Positions 602 through 40,733 of a stretch of 64,000 bases of DNA are shown here, in pieces (the first letter of the stretch is position 1; every line of letters begins with the position of its first letter). The translations under genes and the position numbers were made by a program. The notes below the pieces were generated by a model. That model had not been told where the DNA came from. It did no database searches and worked only from the letters and a program-made list of their open reading frames with translations. This DNA comes from Deltaproteobacteria bacterium (lineage in GTDB: Bacteria > Myxococcota_A > Polyangia > HGW-17 > JAJRWW01), in contig JAOZUO010000015.1 in NCBI GenBank assembly GCA_029938605.1, forward strand, positions 779 through 64,778. The letters run 5' to 3'.

Positions 602-2950
602 CTATTCTTTGCCCAGCATGTTCAGGATCCGCTCGGGGATCAGGGGTATGGTGGTTACCGGGCGTCCCAGGGCGGCGGCTACGGCGTTGGCGATGGCGGC
701 GGCGCCGGGGATGAAAGAGGGCTCGCCTATGCCCCGGGCGCCGAAGGGGCCCAGGGGCTCAGGGTCTTCGAGGAACACCATGTTCACGGTCGGCGCGTCC
801 ACGGCGGTGGGGATGAGATAGTCGGCGAAGCTCGGGTTCATGAGCTTGCCCTCTTGCAAAGACAGGTTCTCCATGCAGGCCCAGCCCATGGCTTGGACGG
901 CGCCGCCCTCCACCTGCCCCTCGATGGCGGTGGCGTGGATGACGCGTCCCACGTCGTGAATGGCCGTGATGGACAGGACCTCGAGCTTACCGGTCCAGGT
1001 GTCCACCCGCACCCGGGTGGCGTGGGCGCCGAAACTGTAGAACATGTACGCCTGGCCCTGGCCGGTCTCGGCGTCGTAGTCCCGGGGCTTGCTGCGGTAC
1101 CAGCCCACGGCGGCCGGATTTTCGCGTCGGGCGTGCAGCAGGGCAGCCACCTCCTCGAAGGCGACCCGGCGTTTGGTGTCGGGAGACTCGAAGCCCCCCT
1201 CTACCACGACGAGGGCGTCCGGATCCGGTGCGTCGAGCAGCTCGGCGGCCAGGGGGAGCAGACGGGCCTGGAGCTGATCGGCTGCGTCGCAGATGGCCCG
1301 GCCGCCCACCAGGGTGGCGCGGGAGGCCACCGTGGGACCGGAGTCCGCGACCATATCTGTGTCCACCTCGGTGATCCGGATCCGTTCTTCGTCCGCGCCC
1401 AGGGCGGTGGCGGCGATGGCCCGGGCCGCGGTCAGCGCGCCCTGGCCCATCTCCGTGACGCCGATGGCCACCGACACCGAGCCGTCCGCCTGTACCTGGA
1501 CCAGCGCGCCGCCCCGGTCCAGGGGCTGGCCGCCGTGGTGCAGGTTGGCACCGTAGATGAATACCGAGATGCCGGTGCCCTGGCGATAGCGTTCGTCGTC
1601 TTCCACCAGGCTCGCGGCCGGGCTTGCGGCGGGGCCGTGGACGTCCGCCGTGACCCCACTGTCGGTCATGACCTCACTGTCGGTCATGACCTCACTGTCG
1701 GTCATGACCTCACTGTCGGCCAGGGCGTCGAGCACCGCGCCCAGACGCTCGGTCTGCGCGATGGTCTCGCCCGTGGACCACAGGGGGCGGTCCGGAGTCA
1801 GCGCGTTCAGGCGCCGCACCTGTAGGGGGGGGAGGCCCACCTGCCGGGCCAGGCGGTCCATCTGACACTCATGGACCACGGTGACCTGCGGGGCGCCGAA
1901 GCCGCGGAAGGGGCCGCCAAAGAGGTTGTTGGTGCGCACCACCTGGGTACGGATGCGAACGTTGTCCACCGCGTAGGGCCCCACCAACGAGGTGTTGGCG
2001 CGCTCTGACACCACCGTGGACATGCCCACATAGGCACCCGCGTCCACGATGACCTCGGCGTCCACGCCCAGGATGCATCCCGAGGAGTCAGCGTAGAGCT
2101 TGTGGTGGACGGTCATGCTGTGCCGCTTGGTGGAGGCCTGGAAGTCGAGCTCACGCGGCAGGAGCAACCGCACGGGGCGTCTGGTGCGCTGGGCCAGCAG
2201 CGCCGCGCAGGCGGCGATCTCGTTGGGGTAGTCCTCCTTGCCCCCGAAGCCTCCGCCGGTGGGCGTCTGCAGGACGCGGACTTCGGCCAGGGGCAGATCG
2301 AGCACCTTGGCCACGGCGCTTCGCACGTAGAAAGGGCACTGGGTGGAAGAGTACAGCCACATGCCGCCCGTGGGAGCAGGCACGGCGAGGCAGCCCTGGG
2401 GCTCGAGGTAGGCGTGCTCCTGGCCGCCGATGCGGTAGGTCTCCTCAATGACCACCTCGGCGGTGTCGAGGGCCGATGACAGGTCGCCGCGATCCACGGA
2501 GAAGGTCCTGATGAGGTTGCCGTCGGGGTGAACCTGGGGGGCGTCTGCGTCCAGGGCGTGCTCGGCATCGTAGACGCCGGGCAGGGGCTCTGTCTCCAGC
2601 GCCACGGCCTCCAGTCCCGCCTGACAGGCCGCGGGGGTCTCGGCCACTACCAGGGCCAGCCGCTCGCCCACCATGCGGATCTCCGTCTCCACGAGGAGGG
2701 GCTGGTCGTCGAAGATGATGCCGATCCGGTTTTTGTCGCCCAGGTCGGCGGCGGTCACCACCGCCAACACGCCCTCCACCTGCCGGGCGGCGGCTACGTC
2801 CAGCCGGAGGATGCGCGCCGGTGCCTGGTCACTGGCCAGGATCGCCGCGTGAAGCATGCCCGGGGGGTGTATGTCGCCCACGTAGGGCTGCTTTCCCTGG
2901 ACCTTGGCAGCCGCGTCGGGCCGAATGGACCGTCCACCCACGCCGCTCAT
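602..2950 (-). CDS. Xanthine dehydrogenase/aldehyde oxidase-family molybdopterin-binding large subunit (CoxL/XdhA-like; lacks the CODH VAYRCSFR loop)
   Basis: 782-aa ORF with Ald_Xan_dh_C-type motifs ([22 protein letters not shown]...ECQMD) and an a/b-hammerhead N-terminus. A 4-nt ATGA overlap joins it to the upstream 2Fe-2S subunit. It contains an in-frame 18-bp x ~4 tandem repeat (DSEVMT)n. Confidence 0.88.
1647..1720 (-). repeat. In-frame 18-bp tandem repeat (gtcggtcatgacctcact, ~4 copies) inside the Mo-hydroxylase large subunit; encodes (MTDSEV)n
   Basis: Direct reading shows three perfect 18-mers at 1661-1714 plus a degenerate flanking copy. Confidence 0.9.
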
Positions 2951-3467
2951 GGCTGCTCCTTTGAATGGTCAGAGGTCGCCTGCGCGTCGGGTGCGGCGGC
3001 GCCGACCTTCCGGACGGCGTCCACGACCTTTTTGTAGCCCGTGCAGCGGCAGATGTTTCCCGCCAGGGCCGTGCGGACGACCTCGTCGGTGAGCTCTTTA
3101 TCGCTATCCACCAACGCCCGGGCGCTCATGACGAGCCCGGGGGTGCAGTAGCCGCACTGCACCGCCCCCTCTTCCACGAAGGCCTGCTGGACAGGATCCA
3201 GCCCCCCGGCGCCGTCGCCGAGTCCCTCCACCGTAGTGACCTGACGCTCCGCCGCTGAGCCGAGCACCATGAGGCAGCTACAGATGGGGGCGCCGTCCAC
3301 CAGCACCGTACAGGCGCCGCACTCCCCGCCGCCGCAGCCCTCCTTGGCGCCGGTGAGACCCAGCTCGTTGCGTAGGAAGTCCAGCAGTCGCATGGTGGGA
3401 GAGGCGTCGGTGACATGCACCGTGCCGTTGACCGTGATTCTTATCTTTATAGCGGGCGCGCTCATGA
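2947..3467 (-). CDS. (2Fe-2S)-binding small subunit of Mo-hydroxylase (CoxS/XdhC-iron-sulfur type)
   Basis: Translation MSAPAIKIRITVNG...CGGGECGACTV...QCGYCTPG...CRCTGY shows plant-type and second [2Fe-2S] Cys clusters. Start set at the internal ATG (rc 3465-3467) by homology; the ORF-track 5' extension is Arg/Pro-rich read-through. Confidence 0.85.
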
Positions 3468-4319
3468 CTTCATGCACTCCAGCAGGTGCTCGCGCACCAG
3501 GGCCGCCACCAGCCGGCGGCGGTACTCGCCTGTGGCCCGGTGGTCGTCGATGGGTTGGGCCTGGGCCGCTGCTGCCGCCGCCGCGGTGCGGCAGAGCTCC
3601 TCGGTGAGGGGCTCGCCATGTACCAGCGCCTCGGCCCGGCTCGGCCTCAAGCAGGTGGGGCCCACGGCGGCCAGAGCCAGGCGGCACTGTTGCACCACGC
3701 CGTCGGTGATCTGCGTCACGCCTGCCACGGCGGTCAGACTGCACACCAGGGCGTTGCGACCGCCCACCTTGTTAAAGGACTGATGGGCCGCGGTGTCGTC
3801 CGGGAGCAGGGGGATGGAGAAGGCCTCCAGCAGCTCCCCGGGCGCCAGGGCCGTTGTGCCGGGCCCGCGCAAAAACTCCCCGATGGGGAGGGAGCGGACG
3901 CCGCCCACCGAGCGGAGCATCACCCGGGCCTCAAGCGCCACCAGCGCACAGGCGGTGTCCGCCGCGGGCGAGGCGTTGCAGACGTTGCCGCCCACGGTGG
4001 CCATGTTCTGGATCTGGGCGGCTCCCACCTTGGACGCGGCCTGCGCCAGGGCCGGGAGCTGTCGGACCACCACGGCGTCACCCAGGAGCTGGGTCATGGT
4101 GCACATGGCGCCGATGACGACGGCGTCCCCGGTGGGATGGATGGTGTCGAGGCCGATACGTCCGATGTCCACCAGGACACTGGGCTTCATGTGTCCGACG
4201 CGCATGCGGACCAGCAGGTCGGTGCCGCCCCCCAGGGGGCGCGCGCCGGCTCCTTCGCCCGAAAGGATCGTCAGGGCCTCGGTGATTTTCTTGGGCCGAT
4301 AGTATCTGGGTTCATTCAT
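3462..4319 (-). CDS. FAD-binding subunit of Mo-hydroxylase (CoxM/XdhB-like, FAD_binding_5 + CO_deh_flav_C)
   Basis: Translation MNEPRYYRPKKITEALTIL...GGGTDLLV...ATVGGNVCNASPAAD. The start is taken at the ATG at 4319; an alternative GTG at 4337 would add 6 aa. Order M-S-L matches cox-type operons. Confidence 0.82.
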   Translation of the reverse strand: MNEPRYYRPKKITEALTILSGEGAGARPLGGGTDLLVRMRVGHMKPSVLVDIGRIGLDTIHPTGDAVVIGAMCTMTQLLGDAVVVRQLPALAQAASKVGAAQIQNMATVGGNVCNASPAADTACALVALEARVMLRSVGGVRSLPIGEFLRGPGTTALAPGELLEAFSIPLLPDDTAAHQSFNKVGGRNALVCSLTAVAGVTQITDGVVQQCRLALAAVGPTCLRPSRAEALVHGEPLTEELCRTAAAAAAAQAQPIDDHRATGEYRRRLVAALVREHLLECMKS

Positions 4320-6875: not shown

Positions 6876-6913
6876 TTGATTAGAGAGAGGGTTACGCTTA
6901 GAGCTCCGGTTTA

Positions 6914-7648
6914 ATGGACTACGTCGTGATTTATATATTGTTGGCGCTGGCCCTGGCGGCTTTCGTGCTGGCGCTTGGGCTCTGGTGGCGGGGTCGGCGG
7001 ATTCATCGGAATGAGGCGGCCGCGGCTGATCTTACACCCCTGTCGGCCGAGAACTTGCGGCAGCTCCGCTCTCGTCTTCGCACCGTGGCCAACCATCTGC
7101 CGCGCCAGCGGGCGCTGACCTACTGCGACTTTCCCGCCATTGACGCGGCCGCCACCATCGAGGCCTGGCTCCTGCAGCAGAGGCCCGAGAACGCTCGCGC
7201 CGCGGCGACCATCGCCCTGCGCTCGGATCCCCGGAACTGGCGGGTTCGCCTCCATCTGGCGCGCACACTGTTTTACTGCGAGGAGATGGAGGCAGCGGCT
7301 CGGGAGCTGGTGCGGGCCCGTTTGCTGGGGGACAACTCTCCGGCGCAGGACTATCTCGAGGCCAGGATCCGCCTCGCCGCGACGGAGATTGCGTGTTCCC
7401 GGGATCAAACCGCCGCCGACGATCTGGCCTTTCGGCTGCGCAACGAGTCCGCCGAGGCCCTGGAGATGCTCCTGGACGTGGTGGAGCGGGACCCGGCCTT
7501 CGGGGACGCCGCCTACCACGCCGGGCGCCTGGCCATTCGCATCGGCTTGGAGCAGGAGGGCCGCGAAATTCTGTACCACGTTGCCCCTCTCATGGAGGCC
7601 AGCCCCGAACGAGCCGACTACCTCCACGAGGTATCTCGCCTGAATTAG
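6914..7648 (+). CDS. Hypothetical N-terminally membrane-anchored helical-repeat protein
   Basis: 244-aa ORF with one N-terminal TM helix and TPR-like helical content. No specific homology is recognised. Confidence 0.5.
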   Translation: MDYVVIYILLALALAAFVLALGLWWRGRRIHRNEAAAADLTPLSAENLRQLRSRLRTVANHLPRQRALTYCDFPAIDAAATIEAWLLQQRPENARAAATIALRSDPRNWRVRLHLARTLFYCEEMEAAARELVRARLLGDNSPAQDYLEARIRLAATEIACSRDQTAADDLAFRLRNESAEALEMLLDVVERDPAFGDAAYHAGRLAIRIGLEQEGREILYHVAPLMEASPERADYLHEVSRLN

Positions 7649-7878
7649 GGCCCTTGCCCCCCAATGCCAGTTATTTTTGCACTTTCCCTTTTTGACTCCG
7701 GGAGCTTAAACGCTGGGCGGTTACATTGTTTTTACCCCAGAAGTGGGTTCGAAGCGAAAGCGTTCCAGGTGCGTCGGATGGGCACTACCAATTTGTGCGA
7801 GCACTACCAAAACAGTTGACTGATTCATCCACATTAGACTATGGCTAGTGTATACAAACGTAAACGGGGAGGTCGATC

Positions 7879-8982
7879 ATGAAAACAAGAATACTAACAT
7901 CACTGATAACAGTAGTTGCATTGGTACCGCTTGTTTACTCATGCAATAGCTCCTCTGAGGGGACTGATGTAAGTAAATCGGATGTGGCCTCAGATATGGG
8001 CGGTGGTAAGGCCGACGGGTGGGACTTATGTCTGCTCAATGAGTGGTACAACGATGGAGAATGTGACACTTTTTGTCCTGAACCTGATCCAGACTGTGGC
8101 GAAACGGTCTGTAGACCTATCTGCGACGCCGTAGGAACCAGGTCTGAGGGGTGGTATGATTCGTGTACAAACGAGCTGATCGGTTGGGCCCAATGTAGCA
8201 ATTGTACCGCTTTGTGCCAGGCAGTTGGCTCTCGATCCGAGGGTTGGTATGATTCGTGTGGCACGGGTATGGATGGAACTGGACTGATTCGGTGGGAGAG
8301 GTGTGGAACTCAGTTTGAATGTCCACTGACCGGTATCCTCTGCACCCCAAGCTGTCCCCCCGAGGAAGAAATTAATGGTGCCCCCTGTCAACGAGGTCTG
8401 TTTAACGAAGCCACTTGTACTTGTGAACCTATTGAGGAGGATTGCAAACCGATCTGTGACGCAATAGGCAGCAGATCTGAAGGTTGGTATGACTCCTGTA
8501 GCGGCGACCTGATCGGTTGGGGATCGTGCGGTGAGGATTGTGAGGCGGTGTGTCGCAATGTTGGCACCAGATCAGTAGGCTGGTATGACTCCTGTGACAT
8601 CGGCTTGAATGGAATAGGGCTGATTGTCTGGGATTCCTGCGGAGAACAAGGTTGCCCACTATCCGGTATTGCTTGTTCCCCAGACTGCCCCGTCAGCGGA
8701 GAAATCAATGGCGCTCCCTGTCAGCAAGGTAACTTCAACGAAGAGACCTGTGTTTGTGAGCCTCTAGAAACATACTGCATGCCCGTATGCGACGCCATTG
8801 GGTCAAACTCTGAAGGCTGGTATCAATCCTGTACTGGTGACCTGATTGGCTGGGCTCCCTGCGCTGGCTGTGTGGCAGATTGTCGAAATGTTGGAACTCC
8901 CTCAGAAGGCTGGTATGACGACAGTTGTGGTGGGTTGGGTTTTGATGAGCTCATTACCTATGCAACCTGTGGCCTCCCGTAG
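7879..8982 (+). CDS. Secreted cysteine-rich repeat lipoprotein (6 copies of C..ICDAxGSRSEGWYDSC-type repeat); low-GC, probably horizontally acquired
   Basis: Signal peptide with a lipobox-like ...LVYSC. Repeated CDA[VI]G[ST]RSEGWYDSC units recur six times. Codon usage is markedly AT-richer than the neighbours, as is the 230-bp upstream region. Confidence 0.7.
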   Translation: MKTRILTSLITVVALVPLVYSCNSSSEGTDVSKSDVASDMGGGKADGWDLCLLNEWYNDGECDTFCPEPDPDCGETVCRPICDAVGTRSEGWYDSCTNELIGWAQCSNCTALCQAVGSRSEGWYDSCGTGMDGTGLIRWERCGTQFECPLTGILCTPSCPPEEEINGAPCQRGLFNEATCTCEPIEEDCKPICDAIGSRSEGWYDSCSGDLIGWGSCGEDCEAVCRNVGTRSVGWYDSCDIGLNGIGLIVWDSCGEQGCPLSGIACSPDCPVSGEINGAPCQQGNFNEETCVCEPLETYCMPVCDAIGSNSEGWYQSCTGDLIGWAPCAGCVADCRNVGTPSEGWYDDSCGGLGFDELITYATCGLP

Positions 8983-9012
8983 CCAACCCCGGGCCCGACA
9001 ACGATGAACTCT

Positions 9013-9245
9013 GGGCCCGACCAGGAATAAGCGAAGCGCTCAGCTCGCCGATCTATCCCCGTTGACTGCGTCGCTCGTCACTCGGAATCATAGAGATTTT
9101 CTCGCTCCTCGGTTCTTGCCAGCGGCACCGGTCCCCATATCGAAATACTGAGCCTGTAGGGATGCGATTCGTCAGCGATCTTGATCGCTTGGAGCATATT
9201 TGATCGGCATTGCCCTTGGTCCGGACCTTATTCCTGGACGGGCCC
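9013..9245. repeat. 19-bp inverted repeat pair (gggcccgaccaggaataag / cttattcctggacgggccc, 1 mismatch) separated by ~195 bp, between convergent genes
   Basis: Direct reading places the arms at 9013-9031 and 9227-9245. The right arm overlaps the pepP stop codon. Confidence 0.8.
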
Positions 9246-13391: not shown

Positions 13392-14288
13392 ATGGCCAAA
13401 GAGAAAACCCATAGCATCGAGCAGGGTGAAGCCCAGGATCCGGCGGAGGAGCTCGCTTCCCTGGTAGGGGCGCTGCGCACCCACCTGGGCTGGCTCACCG
13501 AGCGGGGCGTACCCTATCTCCCGGCGGCCCCATCGCCGCGCTTCTCCGAGCCGGTGGCCGAGTCGGTGGCCGAGTCGGTGCAAGCGCCGGACGTTGCGCC
13601 GGCAAACGCACCAACCCACGCCCATGCTCGACCGGTGGATCTGTCGGAGCCCCGTGGCGGCGTTTCGGACCAGACCTCCTCGGCCGAGGACCTCGCCACG
13701 CTCACCAGCCCCGGGGTCGGCGCGTCGGGTCTGGCGCGGATCCGGGAGTGCCTCGGCGACTGTCACCGCTGTGGGTTGTCCCAGGACCGTGTGCAGGTGG
13801 TCTTTGGTCAGGGCGCTCCGGATGCCGATCTTCTCTTCGTGGGCGAGGCGCCGGGTCGAGACGAGGATCTTGCCGGCGAGCCCTTCGTAGGGGCAGCGGG
13901 AAAGCTGCTCACCAAGATGCTCAAGGCCATGGGCTTTGACCGGGACCAGGTATACATCGGCAACGTGATCAAGTGCCGCCCCCCGCGCAACCGAAACCCT
14001 CTGCCCGAGGAGCTCGCCGGGTGTGAACCCTTTCTCCTGGCGCAGATTCGGGCCATTCAGCCCAAGATCATTGTGACCCTGGGGCGGTTCGCCGCGCAGG
14101 CTTTGCTCCGGTCGGACGAATCCATCGGGCGCCTCCGTGGTCGGCTGCACTCCGTCGTGCTCGACGGCCGCGAGGTGGTCCTGGCGCCCACGTACCACCC
14201 GGCCTATCTGCTTCGAAACGCCCAGGCCAAGCGTCCGGTTTGGGAGGATTTGCAGCGCGTCATGGCCTGGCTCAAGGAGCACCCATAG
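13392..14288 (+). CDS. Uracil-DNA glycosylase, family 4
   Basis: Translation CHRCGLSQDRVQVVFGQGAPDADLLFVGEAPGRDEDLAGEPFVGAAGKLL...VIKCRPP carries the family-4 UDG motifs, including the Fe-S Cys. Confidence 0.85.
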   Translation: MAKEKTHSIEQGEAQDPAEELASLVGALRTHLGWLTERGVPYLPAAPSPRFSEPVAESVAESVQAPDVAPANAPTHAHARPVDLSEPRGGVSDQTSSAEDLATLTSPGVGASGLARIRECLGDCHRCGLSQDRVQVVFGQGAPDADLLFVGEAPGRDEDLAGEPFVGAAGKLLTKMLKAMGFDRDQVYIGNVIKCRPPRNRNPLPEELAGCEPFLLAQIRAIQPKIIVTLGRFAAQALLRSDESIGRLRGRLHSVVLDGREVVLAPTYHPAYLLRNAQAKRPVWEDLQRVMAWLKEHP

Positions 14289-22255: not shown

Positions 22256-23647
22256 ATGCGAAAATCCACTTGGATACTCATCATCGCTACCGTGATTCTC
22301 AACGTGGTGGCGCAGGCCTATTCCATCCCGGTGACCCGGTATATACGCGACTCCTCCACGTCGGTGAGCGCGGACATCGCCCTGCGATTCGCCTACTTCG
22401 CTTTCATGCTCATTACCGCCGGGCTGGAGGCGTTGCTCTTCGATGACATCGTCTCGGGGGGGGCCTGGCGGAAGCGGTTCCTGGGCGGCGCCGGGACCAG
22501 GGCCGGAAAGCCGCTGGTCATGGACAAAGAGGAGGACGCGCTGGAGCTCACCGACGAGGAGTTCGAAGCAGCCCTCGGCTCCCGCCGCAGCCCCGTGCGC
22601 TCCCTCATCGCCGAGAATTCCCTACCGTTTTTCATCGCCTTCTTCGTACTGCTGGGGCTCAATTGGGTGGCCTTCAACGCGCTCAATGGCTGGTTCGACC
22701 TCTACTACGGGCGGGGGGGCCACCATGTGACCCAGCTTCGTTCCAAGGACGCCGACGAGCGGTGCAAGGCCATGCTCGAGCTGTCGTACAAGCGCAGCAA
22801 GCGCATGGGGCTCGATCTGGAGAAGGTGTTCTCCGACCGGCTGGAGAAGGGCACCGCCAAGGAGAAGATCTGGGCGGCCTGGGCCCTGGGCTATCGCCGC
22901 AAGCTGAGGCTTCCGGGCAAGCCTGTCCATCAGCTCGAGCGTGCCGAGGATCTGCTGGTGCGGCTCCTGGAAAAGGGCACGCCTCGGCAGCAGCGCGTCG
23001 CCGTGGTGGCCGCCGCGCGGTACTCCCTTGCCCGGGGAGATGACGCCAGCGCGACGCTGCTTCCGGCCCTGCGGAATCTCGTCGGGCGTCAGGCCATGGC
23101 CGACAAGGTCCCCGTGGAGTCTGTGGTGGCGTTGGGGCTGCTTCGGGAAAAATCGGCGGTGAAGCTGCTCGGTGACCTACTCCTGAAAAAGGGTGAGGAG
23201 CGGGCCGTGGCCGCGGCTTGGGGATTGGGGCGTATGCAGCACGCCAGCGCTCTCGGGCCGCTGCTCGCTGCGCTGGACAAGGCCGAGCCCACCGTACGTT
23301 GCGCCATCGTTCGGGCTTTCCAGAAGCTGGGTAGCGCGGCCCGGGTGTCGAAGCGACTCATGGATCAGTTCAACCGGAAGGGGTCCAAGTTCTCCTGTGG
23401 CGTGCTCAAGATTGTGCTGCGCCCGGACGGACGGGGTTCCAAGATCGTGGACAAGCTCCCCCTGGCGATGATGTCCGATCGCTACCGGGTGCTGCTGCTC
23501 AAGACCATGGCCAAGGTGAGCTTTCTGCCCGACGCCTTGCCCTGGCTCAAGCGGGTGTCCGAGGACCCGGTCTTCCACAAGCAGGTTCGCGGGTACGCTC
23601 GAGAGTATCGCCGCGCCCTGCTGCGACAGCTTGCCAAGGAGCAGTAG
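22256..23647 (+). CDS. Membrane protein with C-terminal HEAT/PBS-lyase-like repeats
   Basis: Two N-terminal TM segments precede repeated AAWALGR... / AIVRAFQKLG HEAT-like units. Confidence 0.55.
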   Translation: MRKSTWILIIATVILNVVAQAYSIPVTRYIRDSSTSVSADIALRFAYFAFMLITAGLEALLFDDIVSGGAWRKRFLGGAGTRAGKPLVMDKEEDALELTDEEFEAALGSRRSPVRSLIAENSLPFFIAFFVLLGLNWVAFNALNGWFDLYYGRGGHHVTQLRSKDADERCKAMLELSYKRSKRMGLDLEKVFSDRLEKGTAKEKIWAAWALGYRRKLRLPGKPVHQLERAEDLLVRLLEKGTPRQQRVAVVAAARYSLARGDDASATLLPALRNLVGRQAMADKVPVESVVALGLLREKSAVKLLGDLLLKKGEERAVAAAWGLGRMQHASALGPLLAALDKAEPTVRCAIVRAFQKLGSAARVSKRLMDQFNRKGSKFSCGVLKIVLRPDGRGSKIVDKLPLAMMSDRYRVLLLKTMAKVSFLPDALPWLKRVSEDPVFHKQVRGYAREYRRALLRQLAKEQ

Positions 23648-23658
23648 GGATTCGGGGG

Positions 23659-24624
23659 GTGACCTGTATGACCGCGTGGAGTCCCATGGTTTCCCGGACC
23701 CTGGCTTTGGCCCAGACCCAGTCCCTGACCGTGACCCAGACCCAGGCGCGGTCGCTTGCGTTTGCGTTGGTGCTGGTGCTCGAAGCGGGAACAGTCGGAC
23801 CTGGATGCGGCGGCCGCAAGGAGTCGGGCGACGCCCCGGCCGATCGTGTGCAACGAAGGAGCGCCGTTCCCTCAAGGAGCGCCGTCCCATCCCCTCCGCT
23901 GCTGTTCGTCGACGGGTTCGAGTCGGGGACGCTGGACCGGTGGAGCTTTCGGTGGCTGCGGCGACGAGAGTCGGCGCGCATCGTGACCCAGCCGGTGCGA
24001 CATGGCCGCCGCGCCCTGGAGATGTCTCTGCGTCGGGGCGACCCCATGTTCTCCAAGGGCAAGCGATCGGAATTGCAGATTCGCGGCCACTACGATCTGG
24101 GCAAGGCGTACTGGTACGGCTTCAGCGTGTATCTGCCCCGGGGTTGGAAAGAGGACTACCGGGCGGAGGTGGTGGCCCAGTGGTTTGCCACCCGGGATGA
24201 GGATCTCGGAGAGCGGCCGCGCAGCCCTTCGCTGGCGCTGCGCATCAAGAAGAAGCACTGGATCGTCACCTACCGCTATGATCGCAAGCGGCTCTCGGTG
24301 GGAAATACCGCGCCCAAGGGCAAGGTGTACAAGGTCCTCTACCGCCTCGGTGCATGGACCGACTGGGTCTTTCAAGTGCGCTGGTCCGCGGCCGACGACG
24401 GCCTCACCCGTGTGTGGAGAGACGGTCAGCTCGTGGCCACGCGCAAGGGGCCCAACACCTACAACGACGCAGTGGGCCCCATCCTCAAGCTCGGCATCTA
24501 CAAAGCCCCCTGGAACAAGCCCGAGACCAAGTCGGCGGTCAGCGTCCGCCTGCTGTATTTTGATGAGGTCCGGGTGGGCACCAGCGCCGCGGGCTACGCA
24601 GGAGTAGCGCCGCGGGGCAGGTGA
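23659..24624 (+). CDS. Putative secreted polysaccharide-lyase-family / concanavalin-like protein
   Basis: The N-terminus is signal/lipoprotein-like (GPGCGG). The C-terminal domain pattern (WYGFSVYLPRGW...QWF...KLGIYK) resembles the Pfam Polysacc_lyase family. Tentative. Confidence 0.45.
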   Translation: MTCMTAWSPMVSRTLALAQTQSLTVTQTQARSLAFALVLVLEAGTVGPGCGGRKESGDAPADRVQRRSAVPSRSAVPSPPLLFVDGFESGTLDRWSFRWLRRRESARIVTQPVRHGRRALEMSLRRGDPMFSKGKRSELQIRGHYDLGKAYWYGFSVYLPRGWKEDYRAEVVAQWFATRDEDLGERPRSPSLALRIKKKHWIVTYRYDRKRLSVGNTAPKGKVYKVLYRLGAWTDWVFQVRWSAADDGLTRVWRDGQLVATRKGPNTYNDAVGPILKLGIYKAPWNKPETKSAVSVRLLYFDEVRVGTSAAGYAGVAPRGR

Positions 24625-24634
24625 AATCAAGGGT
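24607..24634. repeat. Left copy of 28-bp direct repeat gcgccgcgggg[c/t]aggtgaaatc[a/g]agggt (second copy 25689-25716)
   Basis: Direct comparison gives 26/28 identity. The copy overlaps the stop codon of the 23659..24624 gene. Confidence 0.85.
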
Positions 24635-25007
24635 ACGCGTAAGACAACGCGTAAGACAATTCATCGGCCCCATCGCCCCTGCTTCACATCAAGTTACGTT
24701 TGGGGAACTGCGAAAAAGTGGCCTCAACTACTCACTGAATGATTCTGGGATCCAGCCGGGATTTGAATCCGATGTACCGATTGGAGGTTTTTGACATACG
24801 CAGTGGGGATATTAGCTCTCTGTTGCGATCTGCCGTAGCGGTTTGTTCGTTATTATTGCTGAGTATTAACGGATATAATGGCGTTGTTGATTGGATGTGA
24901 GCTAAAGCGAAAAACACGAAAAACAGTAGCGACTCAATGAGCAAAATGTTGTATGCATCTTCCGTCGCCGCGGGGGTTTGGTTGGCGGCAGAAGGAGAGT
25001 CTTCGTT

Positions 25008-25577
25008 ATGTCCGTTGTCAATGCAGTCAATCCGGTCACGGACCAAGAAGAGCAGATTCAGGACCTGTTTCAGCGTGTGAAAGCTCTCGAGGCGGCTGCG
25101 CCAGGGGACAGGCTCACTCTGGGCGTCATGAGCGGTAATCTTGATTACACCATGGCGGCCTTTATCATCTCGTTGGGGGCGGTGGCCTACGATATGGAGG
25201 TGGATCTGTTCTTTACCTTTTGGGCCACCGCGGCGCTCCGGGATCCGAAGAAGAGACCACCCAAGAATTTTCTGGACAGGATGTTTGGGTGGATGCTGCC
25301 CAAGGGGACCGGCCAGCTTCCAATCTCCAAAATGCAGATGGGGGGCGTGGGTCCCCAGATGATCAAATACGTCATGAAAAAGAACGGCGCCAAATCACTG
25401 GATGAGCTGATTCAGGATGCCGGCGATTTCGGCGTGAGGATTCACGTTTGTGAGATGTCCATGGACATCATGGGGCTCAAAAAAGAGGAGATGATCGACT
25501 ATCCCTACCTGGACTATGTCGGTGTAGGGACCTTCTTGAGCCTGGTGCAGGACTCGAAATCGACCTGGTTCCTGTAG
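25008..25577 (+). CDS. DsrE/DsrF-like family protein (sulfur-relay/peroxiredoxin-like fold)
   Basis: The start at 25008 has a strong SD (gaaggagag) 8 nt upstream. Translation MSVVNAVNP...MSGNLDYTMAAFIISLGAVAYDMEVDLFFTFWA...VRIHVCEMS. It sits in a lower-GC segment. Confidence 0.65.
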   Translation: MSVVNAVNPVTDQEEQIQDLFQRVKALEAAAPGDRLTLGVMSGNLDYTMAAFIISLGAVAYDMEVDLFFTFWATAALRDPKKRPPKNFLDRMFGWMLPKGTGQLPISKMQMGGVGPQMIKYVMKKNGAKSLDELIQDAGDFGVRIHVCEMSMDIMGLKKEEMIDYPYLDYVGVGTFLSLVQDSKSTWFL

Positions 25578-25690
25578 TCCCCGGTCCCCCGGTCCCCCGG
25601 TCCCCCGGTCCTCCGGTCCCCCGGTCCTCCGGTCCCCCGGTCCCTCCGGTCCCCCGGTCCCTCCGTCCCTCCGTCTCCCCGTCCTGTCGC
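25578..25690. repeat. (CCGGTCCC)n octanucleotide microsatellite, ~13 units, imperfect; the G-rich strand (GGGACCGG)n is on the minus strand
   Basis: Direct reading shows it immediately 3' of the DsrE-family stop codon. Confidence 0.9.
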
Positions 25691-25716
25691 GCCGCGGGGT
25701 AGGTGAAATCGAGGGT
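25689..25716. repeat. Right copy of the 28-bp direct repeat (see 24607-24634)
   Basis: Sequence gcgccgcggggtaggtgaaatcgagggt. Confidence 0.85.
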
Positions 25717-25860
25717 GTGGACATTGCCGACGCGGTACCCCTTTGGGGAAGAATTGATGCGATCCCGCTGGCTTATCACCGTCACCTTGAAAGGGACCCG
25801 GTGATCATCTATATTTCAGTGACTTAGCACCCCCCATTCAGGAACGAGGTAGAGCGGAAA

Positions 25861-27843
25861 ATGAGCGACGCACCTCCCAACGCCCCCGAGGGCGGCGCCT
25901 CGGCGTCTGCTATTTCGACTGATATCGAGCCAGGAGCGCTCATTGGCGGGACCTACCGCATTGAGAAGCGGCTGGGTGAAGGTGGCCTCGGCCCCCTGTA
26001 CCGCGCCGTGGATGAGCGGTCTGATGCCATGGTGGCGCTGCGGGCCCTGGTGCCGGAGCTCACCGGGCATCCGGAGGTGGCCGCGAGCCTGCGGGCGCAG
26101 ATCGAGGTCGCCACCTCCCTTAAGCACAAGAACATCGTCAAGACCTTCGGCATCGCGGCCGAGGGTGAGCTGCTGTTTGTGATCACCGAGCACGTGGTGG
26201 GTCAGTCCCTGCGGGAGATCATGGATCGCAAGCGGCGTTCGAACAAACCCTTCACTCTCAAGGGGGCGTACAACATCGTTGCTCACCTGTGCAACGCCTG
26301 CGGCTACGCCCATGAGACCTCCCTGCACGGCGCCCTGAATCCGGGGAACATCCTGGTGAATAAGGCCGGGCGTATCAAGATCGGCGAGTTCGGCTACGCC
26401 AGGGCGCTCTCGGGCCTGGGCAATTTCGAGAGCCTGCTCGGCGGTAGTGGGTATCTGTATCTGGCCCCGGAGCTGACCCAGAACCCGGCCAGCGCCGATG
26501 GTCGCGCGGATGTCTACGCCATCGGAGTCATCCTGAATGAGCTCATCACGGGGCGCTCTCCGGCGGAGAGCTTCGAGTCGCCCAGTACGGTGCGGCCCGG
26601 CCTTCCCGTGGAGGTGGACCAGGTCATCGGTCGTTGCATGCGGCCGGTGCCCGACGAGCGGTTCGAGTCCATCCAGATGCTCAAGCTGGCTCTCATGAGC
26701 GCTTTGGAGGACGTCTCCGAGGCGCCGACCTCCGGGCAGGTCAAAAAGCCTGTCGCGGCGTCGGCCGGGGTCGATGTAGACATCGATATCGATATCGATA
26801 TCGACATCGATATGGACATCGATGTGGATGTCGATATGGACGACGACGATGACCAACCCGCACCTGAGGCGGCGGTCTCCGCATCGCCTTCAGGCCGGCC
26901 CGGGCTCCCGGCGGATCTGCCTCCGCCACCGGCGGCGGACGAAGATCCCTTTGCCGCGGGACCGGGCGGCGGTGGCGCGGAGGGCGGCCCGCCGCTCATC
27001 GGCGGCGCGGATGACGCCTTCGATCTCGAAACCCTCATCACCGAGGCCGCGGGTGAGGATGAGGATAAGTTCCTCATCTCCAAGCAGGGGCTCGAGTATG
27101 GTCCCTTCGCGGTGACCGAGATCAAGCGGCAGATCGCCTCGGGCGAGATCGAGCCCGTCGATTCGGTGGTGGACGTGGATTCGGGAAAACGGATTAAGGT
27201 CAAGGTTCACCCGCTGTTCAAGGATTTCACGCAGGAGGTGGTGCGTCGACGGGAGGCCCAGCGGAGGGCCGTGGCGGAGAGCGCTACTGAGACCACCGAG
27301 AAGCACAAGTCTCGCGTGATGCTTATCGTCGGGATCGTCGCCGTGGCGGTGATCGGGTTGGGTGTGGGGTCGGTGCTGATCTACCAGGGCATCACCAAGA
27401 AGAAGAAGGGGATGTCCAAGCGTGGTGGGGCAGGGGACAGCGACTATATCGGGAGCGCCGAAGATATCGCGGCCATGAAGAAGCGACGGGGACGACGGGG
27501 GCGGCGACGGGGCGGCCGTAGCGGTGGTTACGGACTGGACATGCAGGTGGCCGGCATGGACTCCTTCAACTTTGGCGGTATGCACGGTGGCCAGGAGCGG
27601 CTCAGCCCGTCGGTGATCCGGTCAATCATCGACCGTCGGAAGAATCGCGTGGGCAACTGTATGATCAGCGCCGGCTCCAAATCGATCCGCGTTTTCGTTC
27701 ATGTACGGGGCAGCGGCAAGCTGGGCTATGTGGGCACCAAGCCCAAGAGCGCCTCCGGTTGCGTGCGGCGGGCCCTGAGCGGTCTGCGATTCCCCAAGTT
27801 CAACGGCTCGGTCACCAAGGGAAGCTACTACCTGAGCATGTGA
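25861..27843 (+). CDS. Ser/Thr protein kinase-like protein, predicted pseudokinase; central acidic (DI)n repeat, GYF/DUF4339-like segment, TM helix, C-terminal AgmX/PglI-type domain
   Basis: The kinase fold is recognisable (GTYRIEKRLGEGGLG...SLKHKNIV...APE). The catalytic motifs are degenerate: VAIK becomes VALRAL, HRDLKPxN becomes HGALNPGN, and DFG becomes EFG. (GATATC)n encodes VDVDIDIDIDIDIDMDIDVDVDMDDDDD. The C-terminus IRSIIDRRKNRVGNCMISAG...GCVRRALSGLRFPKF matches the AgmX/PglI C-terminal family. Confidence 0.8.
   Translation: MSDAPPNAPEGGASASAISTDIEPGALIGGTYRIEKRLGEGGLGPLYRAVDERSDAMVALRALVPELTGHPEVAASLRAQIEVATSLKHKNIVKTFGIAAEGELLFVITEHVVGQSLREIMDRKRRSNKPFTLKGAYNIVAHLCNACGYAHETSLHGALNPGNILVNKAGRIKIGEFGYARALSGLGNFESLLGGSGYLYLAPELTQNPASADGRADVYAIGVILNELITGRSPAESFESPSTVRPGLPVEVDQVIGRCMRPVPDERFESIQMLKLALMSALEDVSEAPTSGQVKKPVAASAGVDVDIDIDIDIDIDMDIDVDVDMDDDDDQPAPEAAVSASPSGRPGLPADLPPPPAADEDPFAAGPGGGGAEGGPPLIGGADDAFDLETLITEAAGEDEDKFLISKQGLEYGPFAVTEIKRQIASGEIEPVDSVVDVDSGKRIKVKVHPLFKDFTQEVVRRREAQRRAVAESATETTEKHKSRVMLIVGIVAVAVIGLGVGSVLIYQGITKKKKGMSKRGGAGDSDYIGSAEDIAAMKKRRGRRGRRRGGRSGGYGLDMQVAGMDSFNFGGMHGGQERLSPSVIRSIIDRRKNRVGNCMISAGSKSIRVFVHVRGSGKLGYVGTKPKSASGCVRRALSGLRFPKFNGSVTKGSYYLSM
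26770..26853 (+). repeat. (GATATC/GACATC)n hexanucleotide repeat inside the kinase-like gene
   Basis: Direct reading: about 12 hexamer units containing repeated EcoRV-type palindromes. Confidence 0.9.
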
Positions 27844-39069: not shown

Positions 39070-39858
39070 GTGGGTCAACAAATGAACGAGCTGCTCGACA
39101 CGGCGCGGCGGGCGGCGCGGCGGGCTGGGGACCTTCAGCGGGAGCGGTTTGGCGATCCCGGCGTGATCCGGACCAAGCATCCCATGGAGCTGGTGACCGA
39201 GGTGGACGTGGCCTGCGAGGACGCCATTCGGGAGATCATCGGCGCGACGTACCCCGACCACGATTTTCTGGGCGAGGAGTCCGGTGATAGTGGTGGCGGA
39301 TCGCCCCACCGGTGGATCGTGGACCCCTTGGACGGGACCACGAACTTTGCTCGGGGGCTGCCCATCTTTGCGTCGTCGGTGGCCTATGCCCATCAGGGCG
39401 AGGTGCAGGTGGCGGCCTGTGTGATCCCCCTGTGGAGCGAGGAGCTCTGGGCCGTTCGGGGCGGCGGGGCTTTTTGCAACGGCCGGCCCCTGCGCGTGTC
39501 GGATACGGGTTCCCTGGATCGGGCCTTTGTGGCCACGGGCTTTCCCTACGACGTGAAGGAGCGCGCCGACAACGGGCTGGACCAGTTTGAACGCATGGTG
39601 ATGTCCACCTTGGCCGTGCGGCGGCCCGGCGCCGCGGTGGTGGACCTGTGCTGTCTGGCGGCGGGACGATTCGACGGGTTCTGGGAGCTACGGCTCAAGC
39701 CCTGGGATACGGCGGCGGCGGGGCTTCTGGTCACCGAGGCCGGCGGGCGGATCACGACCTATGACGGCTCCCCTTGGGATCCCTCGAGCCCCAATATCCT
39801 GGCCTCCAACGGTCACCTCCACCAGGCCATGATGGACGTGCTCGCGGATCGGGGCTGA
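39070..39858 (+). CDS. Inositol monophosphatase family protein (SuhB/IMPase-like)
   Basis: Translation FLGEESGDSGG...WIVDPLDGTTNFARGLP...ATGF matches the IMPase signature motifs. Confidence 0.85.
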   Translation: MGQQMNELLDTARRAARRAGDLQRERFGDPGVIRTKHPMELVTEVDVACEDAIREIIGATYPDHDFLGEESGDSGGGSPHRWIVDPLDGTTNFARGLPIFASSVAYAHQGEVQVAACVIPLWSEELWAVRGGGAFCNGRPLRVSDTGSLDRAFVATGFPYDVKERADNGLDQFERMVMSTLAVRRPGAAVVDLCCLAAGRFDGFWELRLKPWDTAAAGLLVTEAGGRITTYDGSPWDPSSPNILASNGHLHQAMMDVLADRG

Positions 39859-39869
39859 GCAGCACTGCC

Positions 39870-40733
39870 ATGGCGCGAAGTAGCGTGCGCGGACGGATCA
39901 TCTTGTCGGCTTCCCGGCGCACCGACCTGCCGGGCTGGCACGCGGACCGGCTCGCCGGGCGGCTGCGGGAGGTCCTGGCTGGCCGTGGTCCCGAGGGGAT
40001 CTACGGGGTGGTTTTCTGGACGCGATTCCCGGGGGCGCTCACGTCCTCGCCGCTCAAGGAGCTGCTCACCGATGACCTGACCAACGTCTGTGTGAACCTC
40101 ACCTTGACCGGTCTGGGAGGTACGCGGCTTGAGCCCCGCGGACCGGCCGCCGAGGAGGTGCTCGGGGACCTGCCGGAGCTCATCGCGCTGATCGGCGGGC
40201 CTGAGCGTGTGCGTTGGCGGTTCGATCCGCTGATCCCCACCGACGATCTTCTCGAGCGGTTCAATGCCCTGGCTCCTCGCTTCGCCGCCCTGGGAGTGGA
40301 CACCTGCACCTTCGCCTTTCCGTCGGCGCGCAGCCTCCGGGGCAACCTGGAGGCGCGGTACCGGGACCTGGGCGTCCCCCGGTGGCCGGACGAGGCCGCC
40401 CGCCGAGACTTCGTGGCCCGTATGGCAGCCGTAGCCGGGCCGCTGGGGATCCAACTCCTGAGCTGCTCCCAGCCCGAGGTGCTCGGCTACCATCCGGCGG
40501 TGCGCCCGGCCCAGTGCATCCCCGGCCACGTGCTCGCCACTGCCCACCCACCGGGGACCCCCGGGCCCAGTGGCAAGGATCCCAGCCAGCGCCGCCACTG
40601 CACCTGTCCGCCCAGTCAGGACCTGGGCGACTACCGCACTGACGCCTGCTCCACGGGCTGCCTCTACTGCTACTCCACCCTGGGCGGCCCCGACGCCGGC
40701 CAGACCCTGCCCTGGTTCCTGCGGGGGCGTTGA
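39870..40733 (+). CDS. DUF1848-family protein (C-terminal Cys cluster CTCPPS...C..GCLYCY)
   Basis: The start is taken at the internal ATG (MARSSVRGRIILSASRRTDLPGWH). The N-terminal ISASRRTD and C-terminal Cys motif fit DUF1848 as I remember it. Tentative. Confidence 0.5.
   Translation: MARSSVRGRIILSASRRTDLPGWHADRLAGRLREVLAGRGPEGIYGVVFWTRFPGALTSSPLKELLTDDLTNVCVNLTLTGLGGTRLEPRGPAAEEVLGDLPELIALIGGPERVRWRFDPLIPTDDLLERFNALAPRFAALGVDTCTFAFPSARSLRGNLEARYRDLGVPRWPDEAARRDFVARMAAVAGPLGIQLLSCSQPEVLGYHPAVRPAQCIPGHVLATAHPPGTPGPSGKDPSQRRHCTCPPSQDLGDYRTDACSTGCLYCYSTLGGPDAGQTLPWFLRGR

Follow-up and report, generated by a model that had tools for sequence, protein, structure and literature searches.

The window, the 64-kb stretch of Myxococcota DNA analysed here, carries on its + strand (to which all coordinates below refer) a polysaccharide lyase gene (23659..24624; Polysacc_lyase PF14099, Pfam 6.2e-43) and, as its downstream flank, a Ser/Thr protein kinase gene (25861..27843; Pkinase, Pfam 6.3e-29). 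Between them lies an intact gene for a 189-aa DsrE-family sulfurtransferase (25008..25577; DrsE_2 PF13686, Pfam 6.9e-42). This gene sits in a 1,054-bp insert (24635-25688) made up of an AT-rich leader, the gene itself and a microsatellite, and the insert is enclosed by direct repeats, the first of which contains the final 21 nt of the target gene, the lyase, including its stop codon. The repeats had been described from the letters alone as imperfect 28-bp copies, and they are confirmed as such: the 28-mer GCGCCGCGGGGCAGGTGAAATCAAGGGT is found at 24607-24634 and again, differing at 2 positions (26/28), at 25689-25716, and the pair lengthens to 28/31 with starts at 24604 and 25686. Copy 1 (GTAGCGCCGCGGGGCAGGTGAAATCAAGGGT, 24604..24634) encodes ...V-A-P-R-G-R-stop and then runs for 10 nt; copy 2 (GTCGCGCCGCGGGGTAGGTGAAATCGAGGGT, 25686..25716) is non-coding, and A-P-R-G-R-stop, the lyase C-terminus APRGR*, can be read in frame in both. 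The overlap of copy 1 with the upstream stop codon (TGA 24622-24624 of ORF 23659-24624) and the duplication of a host gene's 3' end, with APRGR* encoded by both copies, are as the sequence-only reading had them. The longest stretch identical between the copies is 11 nt, and the only symmetry in the 31-mer is a CCGCGG-centred 12-nt imperfect palindrome, the arms across the 31-mer being asymmetric. The search for further copies that had been proposed found none at <=3 mismatches in the 64-kb window, where the chance expectation for 28-mer matches is 0 (100 shuffles), nor was the 28-mer seen as a dispersed repeat in the sequences reached. The window holds no other repeat-bracketed segment; its remaining direct repeats are coding repeats or microsatellites.

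Past the lyase stop, the 10 nt of the repeat run on into host-like filler sequence. The filler (25717..25751, 35 nt) ends in GGGGAAG and abuts the conserved anchor AATTGATGCGATCCC; it may be an earlier duplicate of the lyase 3' end that has since decayed, the comparison with lyase ends being suggestive only (z about 2.2, p about 0.04) and the same test not significant at the orthologous loci L093 and L090. Copy 1, copy 2 and the relic at 25745-25751 provide three serial GGGGnAG motifs in the window, and the recurrent GGGGnAG at the junctions could serve as an overlap region. Beyond the filler, the kinase upstream region (25752..25860), conserved in L090-L093, is left intact by the insertion, and a promoter scan places a promoter-like TTGAAA-17-TATATT at 25787-25815, upstream of the kinase. 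A duplication of 28-31 bp thus preserves the lyase C-terminus and stop exactly and leaves the kinase promoter untouched.

At its left end the insert opens with a perfect 12-bp tandem duplication (ACGCGTAAGACA x2, 24635..24658; TRF) with a 7-bp hairpin, TACGCGT/ACGCGTA. The left 182 nt (24635..24816, GC 0.495) show no significant similarity to the fetched loci and no tRNA or Rfam match. They are followed by a leader block (24822..24890) and by the proximal leader (AATGTTGTATGCnTC ... GGCAGAAGGAGA, 24930..25007), which includes the Shine-Dalgarno AAGGAGAG at 24992-24999, 9 nt ahead of the ATG; altogether 373 nt of insert, promoter-like material included, precede the DsrE start codon. A riboswitch or structured leader was considered and rejected (no Rfam match at E<=1 over 23500-26500; leader fold z +0.23). 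The C-rich microsatellite (25579..25684; TRF score 147) repeats an 8-bp unit, (CCCCGGTC) x13, and is unique in the window; it begins 1 nt past the DsrE stop and ends 1-4 nt ahead of copy 2. Its bottom strand reads (GGGGGACC)n, and a hairpin or cruciform within it was rejected at a DNA fold z of -0.34, obtained with a fold tool that has no G-quadruplex model. The tandem duplication, the microsatellite, the strong Shine-Dalgarno and the AT-rich leader were all found where the sequence-only reading had placed them.

The same reading called the segment foreign-looking, a description that survives in part. With 0.477 for the leader and 0.544 for the DsrE gene, its GC lies below the 0.647 of the window (other intergenic spacers have 0.54-0.65), but much of the gene's low GC stems from the amino-acid make-up of its protein: GC2 is 0.35 against 0.44-0.53 in host genes, while GC3, at 0.73 against 0.80-0.84, shows just a mild departure of the gene at silent sites. 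The GC and codon-usage check that had been proposed sets leader and gene apart from the window by overall GC, and the gene only mildly by silent positions.

PF13686 is matched over its full length (positions 5-154 of a profile of 156) at 143.5 bits, where the cut-off is 25, and the closest solved structure is 3PNX, a putative sulfurtransferase DsrE (2.8e-24). Under NF047629, the DsrE2 equivalog model, the gene scores 49 bits where the cut-off is 210, and hence does not qualify as a bona fide DsrE2. Purifying selection is directly observed, with a dN/dS of 0.06 between the window gene and its closest homologue, in genome L002. Homologues of the DsrE protein above 87% and of the lyase above 86% were not found in 5.8 billion proteins; the next DsrE relatives (73-77% aa) lie on low-GC contigs, inside DsrE-TusA-FlpD operons. 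TusA-DsrE sulfur relays use DsrE2/DsrE-type carriers (Liu et al. 2014, PMC4175335; Tanabe et al. 2024, PMC11094781), with which this gene has the PF13686 fold family in common. In known sulfur-relay clusters TusA (and FlpD) adjoin, as is true of this gene's closest relatives, whereas TusA is absent beside the DsrE gene here and in L002, unlike in L084-L087, and relative to those carriers the gene is an orphan. In functional terms it would be an orphan, well-expressed-looking persulfide-carrier gene under strong purifying selection.

Lyase orthologues (73-86% identity) are present in L001 and L090-L097, with the synteny TPR-HEAT-lyase-kinase-HD conserved; the kinase keeps its place at every orthologous locus. 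Lyase and kinase are adjacent, without the DsrE gene, in four related lineages (L001, L091, L092 and L093-96), where about 100-145 bp separate the lyase stop from the kinase ATG. These empty orthologous loci make the segment a true insertion, directly observed as such, and bear out the earlier supposition that ectopic DNA entered at the lyase 3' end and downstream spacer. The empty-site comparison that had been proposed gave a partial answer at base level. In L092, the closest empty site, the first 18 nt of the repeat are present once, as GCGCCGCGGGGCAAGTGA (ending APRGK*), but the last 10 nt are not alignable at a lyase identity of 82% aa. The lineages sampled number 6 and the closest empty sites stand at only about 82-86% protein identity; without a closer one, the last 10 nt of the repeat and the 35-nt filler are not provably pre-existing in the host.

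In a fifth relative, L090, an unrelated islet of 5.1 kb lies between GCGCCGCG and GGGGTAG-AATCGATGC, a position inside the window's 31-bp repeat interval. Its junctions have no repeat copy, with at most TAG duplicated, and the islet has no integrase, transposase or RT Pfam match. L093 has 32-38 nt of filler at the same point together with a duplicated GGGTAG; GGGGTAG+AAT(T/C)GATGC is contiguous in L090 and L091, as is GGGTAG+AATTGATGC in L093. The presence of the unrelated L090 islet at the same spot suggests a local hot spot for insertion.

Among the DsrE homologues, the closest (87% aa, about 82% nt) belongs to L002 (GCA_030591015.1, a related high-GC MAG), where the module has different neighbours: it occupies the spacer that separates a Fer4-nitroreductase gene from a gene for a 216-aa protein. 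The L002-type loci L098 and L099 are without the DsrE module and constitute orthologous empty sites; the L002 copy is an insertion there too, and its occurrence at this second locus is a direct observation. Window and L002 modules have in common the proximal leader (local alignment score 20, shuffles 11.7+-1.8, 0/300) and a related microsatellite at the same 3' boundary, which in L002 is a 12-bp array, TCCTGTCTCCGG x5, at the same 3' position. The leader block at 24822-24890 is likewise homologous to the leader of the sister gene (z 4.1 against the L002 left copy, 1/2000 shuffles), and it is weakly like the upstream region of the 216-aa gene, the insertion target at the L002-type locus. Against the empty site L098 this likeness reaches z 3.0-5.4, attained by 0/300 to 16/2000 shuffles in several comparisons tried, and there is no significant match against L099 or L002's own right flank. 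A derivation of the left 182 nt from the nitroreductase-side spacer or gene was rejected (not significant against L002, L098 or L099), as was a flanking duplication at L002, where the left side gives z 4.0 against the L098 target and nothing significant against its own right flank or L099. The notion of a small mobile cassette, raised by the sequence-only reading, gains from the same module standing at a second locus but is left weak by an L002 left boundary that differs from the window's and by a flanking repeat that is not clearly demonstrable there. Between window and L002, dS for DsrE is about 1.05; the host-gene dS is 0.44-1.0. The empty nitroreductase locus L098 comes from the same sequencing run as the window.

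The recombinase screen covered 30 larger ORFs of the window, namely 29 of the 33 non-overlapping ORFs of >=250 aa and one 244-aa ORF (ORFs of >=250 aa at 2947-3744, 39774-40733, 59567-62095 and 62753-63973, and all shorter ORFs, lay outside it). Neither in these 30 nor in the insert, which holds only one ORF with a Pfam match, is there an integrase, transposase or reverse transcriptase Pfam match, and to that extent the earlier remark that no integrase or transposase is present holds good, as a direct observation. The insert, the 30 ORFs screened and the L090 islet yielded no integrase remnant or excisionase, and among the 6 lineages no related integrase-bearing element uses the same site, L090 being its sole other occupant. 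ARAGORN finds no tRNA or tmRNA in the window, and a tRNA-derived att site was rejected, the tRNA-like look of 24750-24790 being illusory. No inverted repeats join the insert ends; a DNA transposon, IS or MITE was rejected given the lack of terminal inverted repeats, the lack of a transposase among the ORFs screened and a duplication of 28-31 bp rather than 2-14 bp. An integron gene cassette was set aside likewise, there being no attC palindrome, no intI among the ORFs screened, a microsatellite as 3' end and a 373-nt leader. So was an Xer/dif module: the 28-mer split 11+6+11 yields GCGCCGCGGGG and AAATCAAGGGT, arms without mutual dyad symmetry. A plasmid or phage origin of the segment was also rejected, the 1.1-kb segment having no DNA match in PLSDB, and protein matches being <50% in plasmids and <40% in phages.

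Our best explanation, to which we give about an even chance of being right, is that a non-autonomous DsrE module was relocated from an L002-type locus and inserted with a long target duplication. The module, which encodes no recombinase, lacks terminal inverted repeats and would bring its own expression signals in the leader, would have entered the few bases around the lyase stop, upstream of the kinase promoter, with duplication of 28-31 bp of target: 18-21 nt from the end of the lyase and the 10 nt that follow. Joining would have been recombinase-independent; either the ectopic DNA was joined at a staggered break, or it was copied in as a replication template was switched or a break repaired, and the 31-bp repeat would have arisen when the stagger was filled in. 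The duplication itself is directly observed, and the repeat is best read as duplicated host target sequence; target-site duplication appears to fit better than an element-borne att, in that the 10 nt beyond the stop continue into host-like filler. Because the window leader holds a block resembling the L002-type target, the module was most likely relocated or transferred from the nitroreductase/216-aa-gene type of locus, and it would not have come straight from a distant donor. Among the points that count against this explanation are these: the 3 mismatches in 31 nt fit a decayed duplication and non-identical attP/attB arms alike; 31 bp is the very bottom of the long-target-duplication range; repeated use of the spot (window, L090, L093) is what site-specific recombination predicts; and the leader block is only weakly similar to the L098 target, with no such similarity seen against L099 or the L002 right flank. 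The single assembly behind the right junction, the lack of a flanking duplication demonstrable at L002 on its own and the restriction of the recombinase screen to larger ORFs weigh in the same direction.

The sequence-only reading had offered attL and attR as one interpretation of the repeats, which would make the segment an integrative element at the lyase 3' end, either a CIME-like relic or a satellite whose integrase lies elsewhere. Integrases classically leave a footprint of this kind, in which direct repeats of about 30 bp restore a conserved gene's 3' end, and non-identical repeats suit hybrid att sites. The use of the same few bases in L090 (5-kb islet) and L093 (filler, duplicated GGGTAG) suggests a preferred crossover near GGGGTAG, and the three serial GGGGnAG motifs recall the tandem accretion of CIMEs (PMC5704250). 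We consider this reading unlikely. The site has neither an integrase, an excisionase or a remnant of one (insert, 30 ORFs screened, L090 islet) nor, among the 6 lineages, a related integrase-bearing element, and beyond the CCGCGG palindrome the 31-mer shows no clear dyad-symmetric core with recombinase-binding arms. The L090 junctions are without the repeat, TAG being duplicated at most; the L002 sister occupies a wholly different target with no related repeat detected; and the cargo comes from a chromosomal locus of a related bacterium, with no plasmid or phage DNA match.

The presence of the gene here could also be the older state, with DsrE ancestral at the lyase and the empty sites derived through deletion between the repeats in the relatives. 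Direct repeats of 31 bp are able to mediate precise deletion, and a DsrE dS at or above that of host genes (about 1.05 against 0.44-1.0) implies that the gene has been long in the clade. Such a history would nonetheless require the gene to have been lost precisely, and each time anew, from four lineages or more, the outgroup L001 among them, and the sister copy at the other locus is again the minority state; the leader block resembles that other, L002-type locus, and lyase distances suggest that the DsrE-bearing lineage is nested among empty-site lineages. Since deletion cannot make the lyase-end duplication, an insertion event is needed anyway, and we regard ancestral presence as very improbable. 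Still further down we would place retroposition, in which DsrE mRNA was reverse-transcribed and inserted by target-primed reverse transcription with a variable target duplication and a simple-repeat tail. A single gene with a long target duplication and a microsatellite exactly at the 3' boundary, at two loci, bears a formal resemblance to LINE-mediated processed copies, which combine a single gene with a target duplication and a 3' simple repeat. But no reverse transcriptase is found among the window ORFs screened, the insert extends 373 nt ahead of the ATG and takes in promoter-like material there, the microsatellite is equally explained as a fragile or slippage-prone boundary, and we know of no established process of this type in bacteria. 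The probability that a metagenome assembler mis-joined the DsrE segment into the lyase-kinase spacer is just as slight. An independent Logan assembly of SRR21545381 (L003) reproduces the lyase, copy 1, the leader and DsrE at 100% identity, and with them the left junction. Its contig breaks off within the microsatellite, which leaves a single assembly to support the right junction. The two copies, however, share <=11 consecutive identical bases, far below assembler k-mers and too short for a k-mer mis-join, a diverged second copy of the lyase end is not creatable by mis-joining, and what comes after copy 2 is the kinase upstream region that synteny calls for.

Most single-gene gains in bacteria have no identifiable vehicle; here, a filled site together with several empty ones gives the footprint base by base. 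If it was made without a dedicated recombinase, then insertion with long target duplication would not be peculiar to restriction-modification genes, and there would be a host route of relocation by break repair or template switching in high-GC Myxococcota. As a speculation that we think more probably wrong than right by a wide measure, a promoter-gene-microsatellite module may move between Myxococcota chromosomal sites by host-driven, recombinase-free events with target duplications of ~30-55 bp, the C-rich, G-quadruplex-prone microsatellite acting as a defined 3' end (e.g. a fork-stalling or template-switch point); long-target-duplication insertion would then be general and not tied to restriction-modification cargo. 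On this speculation the flanking repeats would also permit precise excision, with which the empty L098 from the same sequencing run would agree. If an integrase acted in trans, the 31-mer would be a new protein-gene att site with minimal one-gene satellites. The readings differ in what they predict: under target duplication the true empty site would consist of one 31-mer followed by GTGGACATT, under an element-borne att it would be without AAATCRAGGGT past the lyase stop, and a circularised module would have a junction reading ...CCGTCCTGTC-31-mer-ACGCGTAAGACA....

Insertion with long target duplication is said to form a Nobusato/Furuta class, with an earlier description reportedly from 2000 in Gene 259:99. 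Restriction-modification genes occur as insertions with target duplications of 26-49 bp and longer that overlap gene 3' ends and come without mobility genes, for example 46-bp repeats that overlap 15 bp of HI0105 and a 26/26 case in Neisseria; such inserts are often of deviant GC, their flanking repeat is single in the empty site, and the criterion used was >30 bp of duplication with an insert of <20 kb (Furuta et al. 2010, NAR 38:2428, PMC2853133). As in that class, the window has a small unit (1,054 bp) with neither transposase nor integrase, carried by one genome but not by its relatives, between direct repeats of tens of bp that overlap the neighbour's 3' end. It differs in that the repeats, at 28/31 bp, are imperfect and at the lower edge of >30 bp, that the insert is terminated by a microsatellite, and that the empty site is known from relatives at 73-86% protein identity. 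The cargo, moreover, is a DrsE_2 sulfurtransferase and not a restriction-modification system, so that a break made by the cargo's own endonuclease, as proposed for restriction-modification, cannot apply.

A CIME, that is, a decayed ICE or IME that keeps attL and attR (reviewed by Guedon et al. 2017, PMC5704250), would resemble the segment in being recombinase-less, in having direct repeats that include a conserved gene's 3' end and in possible serial copies of the site. Here, by contrast, the unit is 1 kb with one gene, and genes for integration or transfer have left no trace in it; the site is occupied by no related integrase-bearing element, and the other occupant, L090, lacks repeats. Genomic islets formed by (homology-facilitated) illegitimate recombination likewise comprise variable segments of ~1 kb between backbone genes with no known mobile element. 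About 10-18% of variable segments are flanked by short direct repeats, which are mostly read as deletion substrates, and a proposal has been made of hot spots at fragile sites (Touzain et al. 2010, PMC2884548). In the window, unlike in those, the repeat would be a duplication that arose with the insertion, and a second locus carries the same module as well. Set beside these systems, the DsrE module is a clean but not unprecedented case of single-gene relocation, and only moderately novel.

The DsrE-family segment has genuinely been inserted between a polysaccharide lyase gene and a Ser/Thr kinase gene, at what appears to be a hot spot for insertions. Lyase orthologues were compared from six lineages beyond the window, and in four of the six the lyase stop codon is followed after ~100-145 bp by the kinase ATG, with the gene order (HisKA)-TPR-HEAT-lyase-kinase-HD/7TM-PLD kept. 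These DsrE-less spacers, which support the insertion proposed in the sequence-only reading, are found in L091 (lyase 80% aa identity), L092 (82%, C-terminus APRGK*), L093-L096 (75%) and the outgroup-like L001 (73%; MAG Myxococcota bacterium Dive96_bin2.67); L097 (75%) is uninformative, its contig stopping 13 nt past the lyase stop. All loci that reach the kinase have in common a right-hand anchor, AAT(T/C)GATGCGATCCC…CTTGAAAGG…GATCATCTATATTTCAG, which includes a kinase promoter-like TTGAAA-17-TATATT and is intact in the window from 25752.

The segment is bracketed, as described from sequence, by 28-bp imperfect direct repeats: copy 1, GCGCCGCGGGGCAGGTGAAATCAAGGGT, at 24607-24634 and copy 2, with two mismatches, at 25689-25716. 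No third match with 3 or fewer mismatches occurs in the 64-kb window (0 expected from 100 shuffles), nor does any other repeat-bracketed segment. The repeat lengthens to 28 of 31 identical positions, starting at 24604 and 25686, and, of the other 98 loci fetched, only a contig of the same organism contains the 31-mer. Copy 1 does cover the stop codon (24622-24624) of the upstream lyase ORF (23659-24624; PF14099, 6e-43), and A-P-R-G-R-stop can be read in both copies. L092 has a single GCGCCGCGGGGCAAGTGA, which shows that the repeat begins with 18 nt belonging to the host lyase. The insertion duplicated 28-31 bp of its target and left both the kinase promoter and the C-terminus of the lyase intact.

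Between the repeats lie, in order, a 12-bp sequence perfectly duplicated in tandem (24635-24658), the leader upstream of the DsrE-family ORF (373 nt, 47.7% GC), a Shine-Dalgarno sequence (AAGGAGAG), the ORF itself (25008-25577, 189 aa, DrsE_2 PF13686 matched end to end, 6.9e-42) and a microsatellite of 13 CCCCGGTC units (25579-25684), the same features as first reported. GC dips to 0.45-0.56 over the segment, compared with 0.647 for the window and 0.54-0.65 for other intergenic spacers. The low GC thus stands, but the 'foreign' look is largely a matter of amino-acid composition, because the gene has a GC2 of 0.35 and a GC3 of 0.73 against 0.80-0.84 in neighbouring genes; relatives of the protein are typically 3-9 GC points under their own contigs. 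Non-coding long-unit microsatellites are not peculiar to this insert, since a 9-bp unit (CAGTGCCGC) is repeated nine times at 52798-52878, where 930 bp separate ORF 50579-52390 (-) from ORF 53323-54282 (+). Within the kinase gene, a 12-bp-period repeat (GATATCGACATC-like; 26759-26854, and 11850-11935 in L001) codes for an acidic (D-I/V)n tract that differs in length and sequence among orthologues. A second low-GC island (7650-9230, GC 0.48-0.55) has a 230-nt AT-rich leader, a 19-nt inverted repeat (9013-9031 / 9227-9245), no flanking direct repeat, and a 367-aa ORF (7879-8982, GC3 0.48, no Pfam match) with a lipoprotein-like N-terminus and six Cys-rich GxRSEGWYDSC repeats.

The lyase-kinase spacer has changed independently three times at the same few bases, since the window insert, an islet in L090 and a filler in L093 all map there. 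L090 (lyase 86% aa) carries an unrelated 5.1-kb islet between GCGCCGCG and GGGGTAG-AATCGATGC, inside the interval duplicated in the window, containing a hairpin element with 36-nt arms, a small Cys-rich secreted ORF, SatD and three unknown ORFs. The hairpin element, which opens the islet, spans 167 bp (6888-7054), has inverted-repeat arms that are 83% complementary and start CTAGTGCC…, and looks MITE-like; it provides the lyase stop codon, and the secreted ORF (7076-7363) comes next. In L093 (6826-6900), as in L094-L096, a filler of 32-38 nt between lyase stop and anchor is flanked by GGGCGGTAG and GGGTAG and may have been left behind when an earlier insert at this point was excised; it does not resemble the lyase end significantly. 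The window's own 35-nt filler (25717-25751) ends in GGGGAAG immediately before the anchor and may, as its sequence suggests (z ~2.2), represent a copy of the lyase end that is older and has decayed.

The protein falls in a large DsrE-family clade (1,390 hits), with 3PNX, a 'putative sulfurtransferase DsrE', as closest solved relative; identity with the DsrE2 equivalog was rejected (49 bits against a cut-off of 210). TusA follows the DsrE gene in most family members, and the next-closest homologues (73-77% aa) lie in DsrE-TusA-FlpD operons on low-GC contigs (0.41-0.45). The nearest homologue of all is P0002 (87% aa, ~82% nt), encoded on a contig of 65% GC, L002 (GCA_030591015.1). Between the two genes dN/dS is 0.06 and dS ~1.05; host gene pairs of L002 and L098 give dS of 0.44-1.0. 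Judged from these substitutions, the gene is functional and its presence in the high-GC clade goes back about as far as the split of these lineages; the same comparison of dS values rejects a recent arrival from a low-GC donor.

The L002 gene likewise has low GC (0.51) and no TusA, but its neighbours differ (Fer4-nitroreductase, two hypothetical genes, FHA, sigma-54 activator). In two orthologous loci, L098 and L099, the nitroreductase and a 216-aa gene stand divergently 167-183 bp apart without DsrE, and therefore the sister copy is also an insertion, in a different target. Elsewhere in L002 (4457-5097), the convergent 218-aa and FHA genes are separated by ~600 additional bases, which hold a high-GC ORF of 189 aa (no Pfam match), have no obvious flanking repeats and are missing from L098 and L099. 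A pyrimidine-rich array (TCCTGTCTCCGG x5), related to the window microsatellite, begins 23 nt past the L002 DsrE stop; at both loci homology to the empty site restarts within a few bases of the microsatellite end, so the module ends at the same right boundary in both. The two leaders are alike in their proximal 70 nt (score 20 against 11.7±1.8, 0/300 shuffles) and in a second block, TGCGAnnTGCCGTAGnGGT… (z 4.1). This block, at 24822-24890 in the window, also resembles the L098 target upstream of the 216-aa gene (z 3.0-5.4), with no significant similarity to L099 or to L002's own right flank, and the left 182 nt of the insert match nothing compared. These resemblances suggest that the window module may descend from an insertion at a nitroreductase-type locus, carrying along a piece of that target. 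L098 (Logan SRR21545381_3081318) and the Logan contig of the window were assembled from one sequencing run; should both be part of one genome, DsrE would have left the nitroreductase locus for its present place behind the lyase. The case hints that the module has moved from one chromosomal site to another.

The finding stands and is well resolved, and we give an assembly error little weight: from the lyase through copy 1 and the leader to DsrE, an independent Logan assembly (L003, SRR21545381) is 100% identical before it breaks within the microsatellite, and a k-mer mis-join is not credible because the longest exact run common to both repeat copies is 11 nt. Similarly small weight goes to a DsrE gene ancestral at the locus and lost multiple times, and to retroposition. 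Integrase, transposase and reverse transcriptase families were found neither in the L090 islet nor among 30 of the larger window ORFs (one of 244 aa and 29 of the 33 non-overlapping ones that reach 250 aa; 2947-3744, 39774-40733, 59567-62095, 62753-63973 and shorter ORFs generally fall outside this screen), in agreement with the sequence-only reading. The insert ends have no inverted repeats, the window has no tRNA or tmRNA, no Rfam families were found, and the leader RNA fold is not unusual; plasmid DNA gave no match, and plasmid and phage proteins only distant ones. Some 8-11 kb upstream are an N6/N4 DNA methylase (PF01555, 15586-16596, -), with no cognate restriction gene noticed among the tested window ORFs, and a UDG-family glycosylase (13392-14288, +).

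The main rival, site-specific recombination by an integrase acting in trans or a relic resembling a cis-mobilizable element (CIME; PMC5704250), would fit the GGGGnAG motifs in series and the fact that one spot has been used repeatedly, but no integrase was found, the L090 islet is not flanked by the repeat, and the sister module sits in a different target. We consider it rather unlikely; of the proposal of attL/attR integration or cassette insertion, the insertion holds, while an attL/attR nature of the repeats is unproven, target duplication being the likelier account on balance. Target-site duplication is the simplest reading because the repeat tail AAATCRAGGGT continues into host-looking filler and the cargo comes from a relative's chromosomal locus. 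A staggered break might have taken up ectopic DNA, or template switching might have copied it in. The C-rich microsatellite, whose bottom strand (GGGGGACC)n is by sequence a canonical G-quadruplex motif, is a plausible stalling or switch point as well as shared boundary. Insertion with target duplication and without a recombinase seems to us an even call. Insertions with long target duplication are known for restriction-modification (RM) genes; there the repeats measure 26-49 bp and more and overlap the 3' ends of genes, mobility genes are lacking, and the mechanism is unexplained (PMC2853133). The cargo here, unlike in those cases, is not an RM system, making this a new example of a kind of insertion that is known but still lacks a mechanistic explanation.
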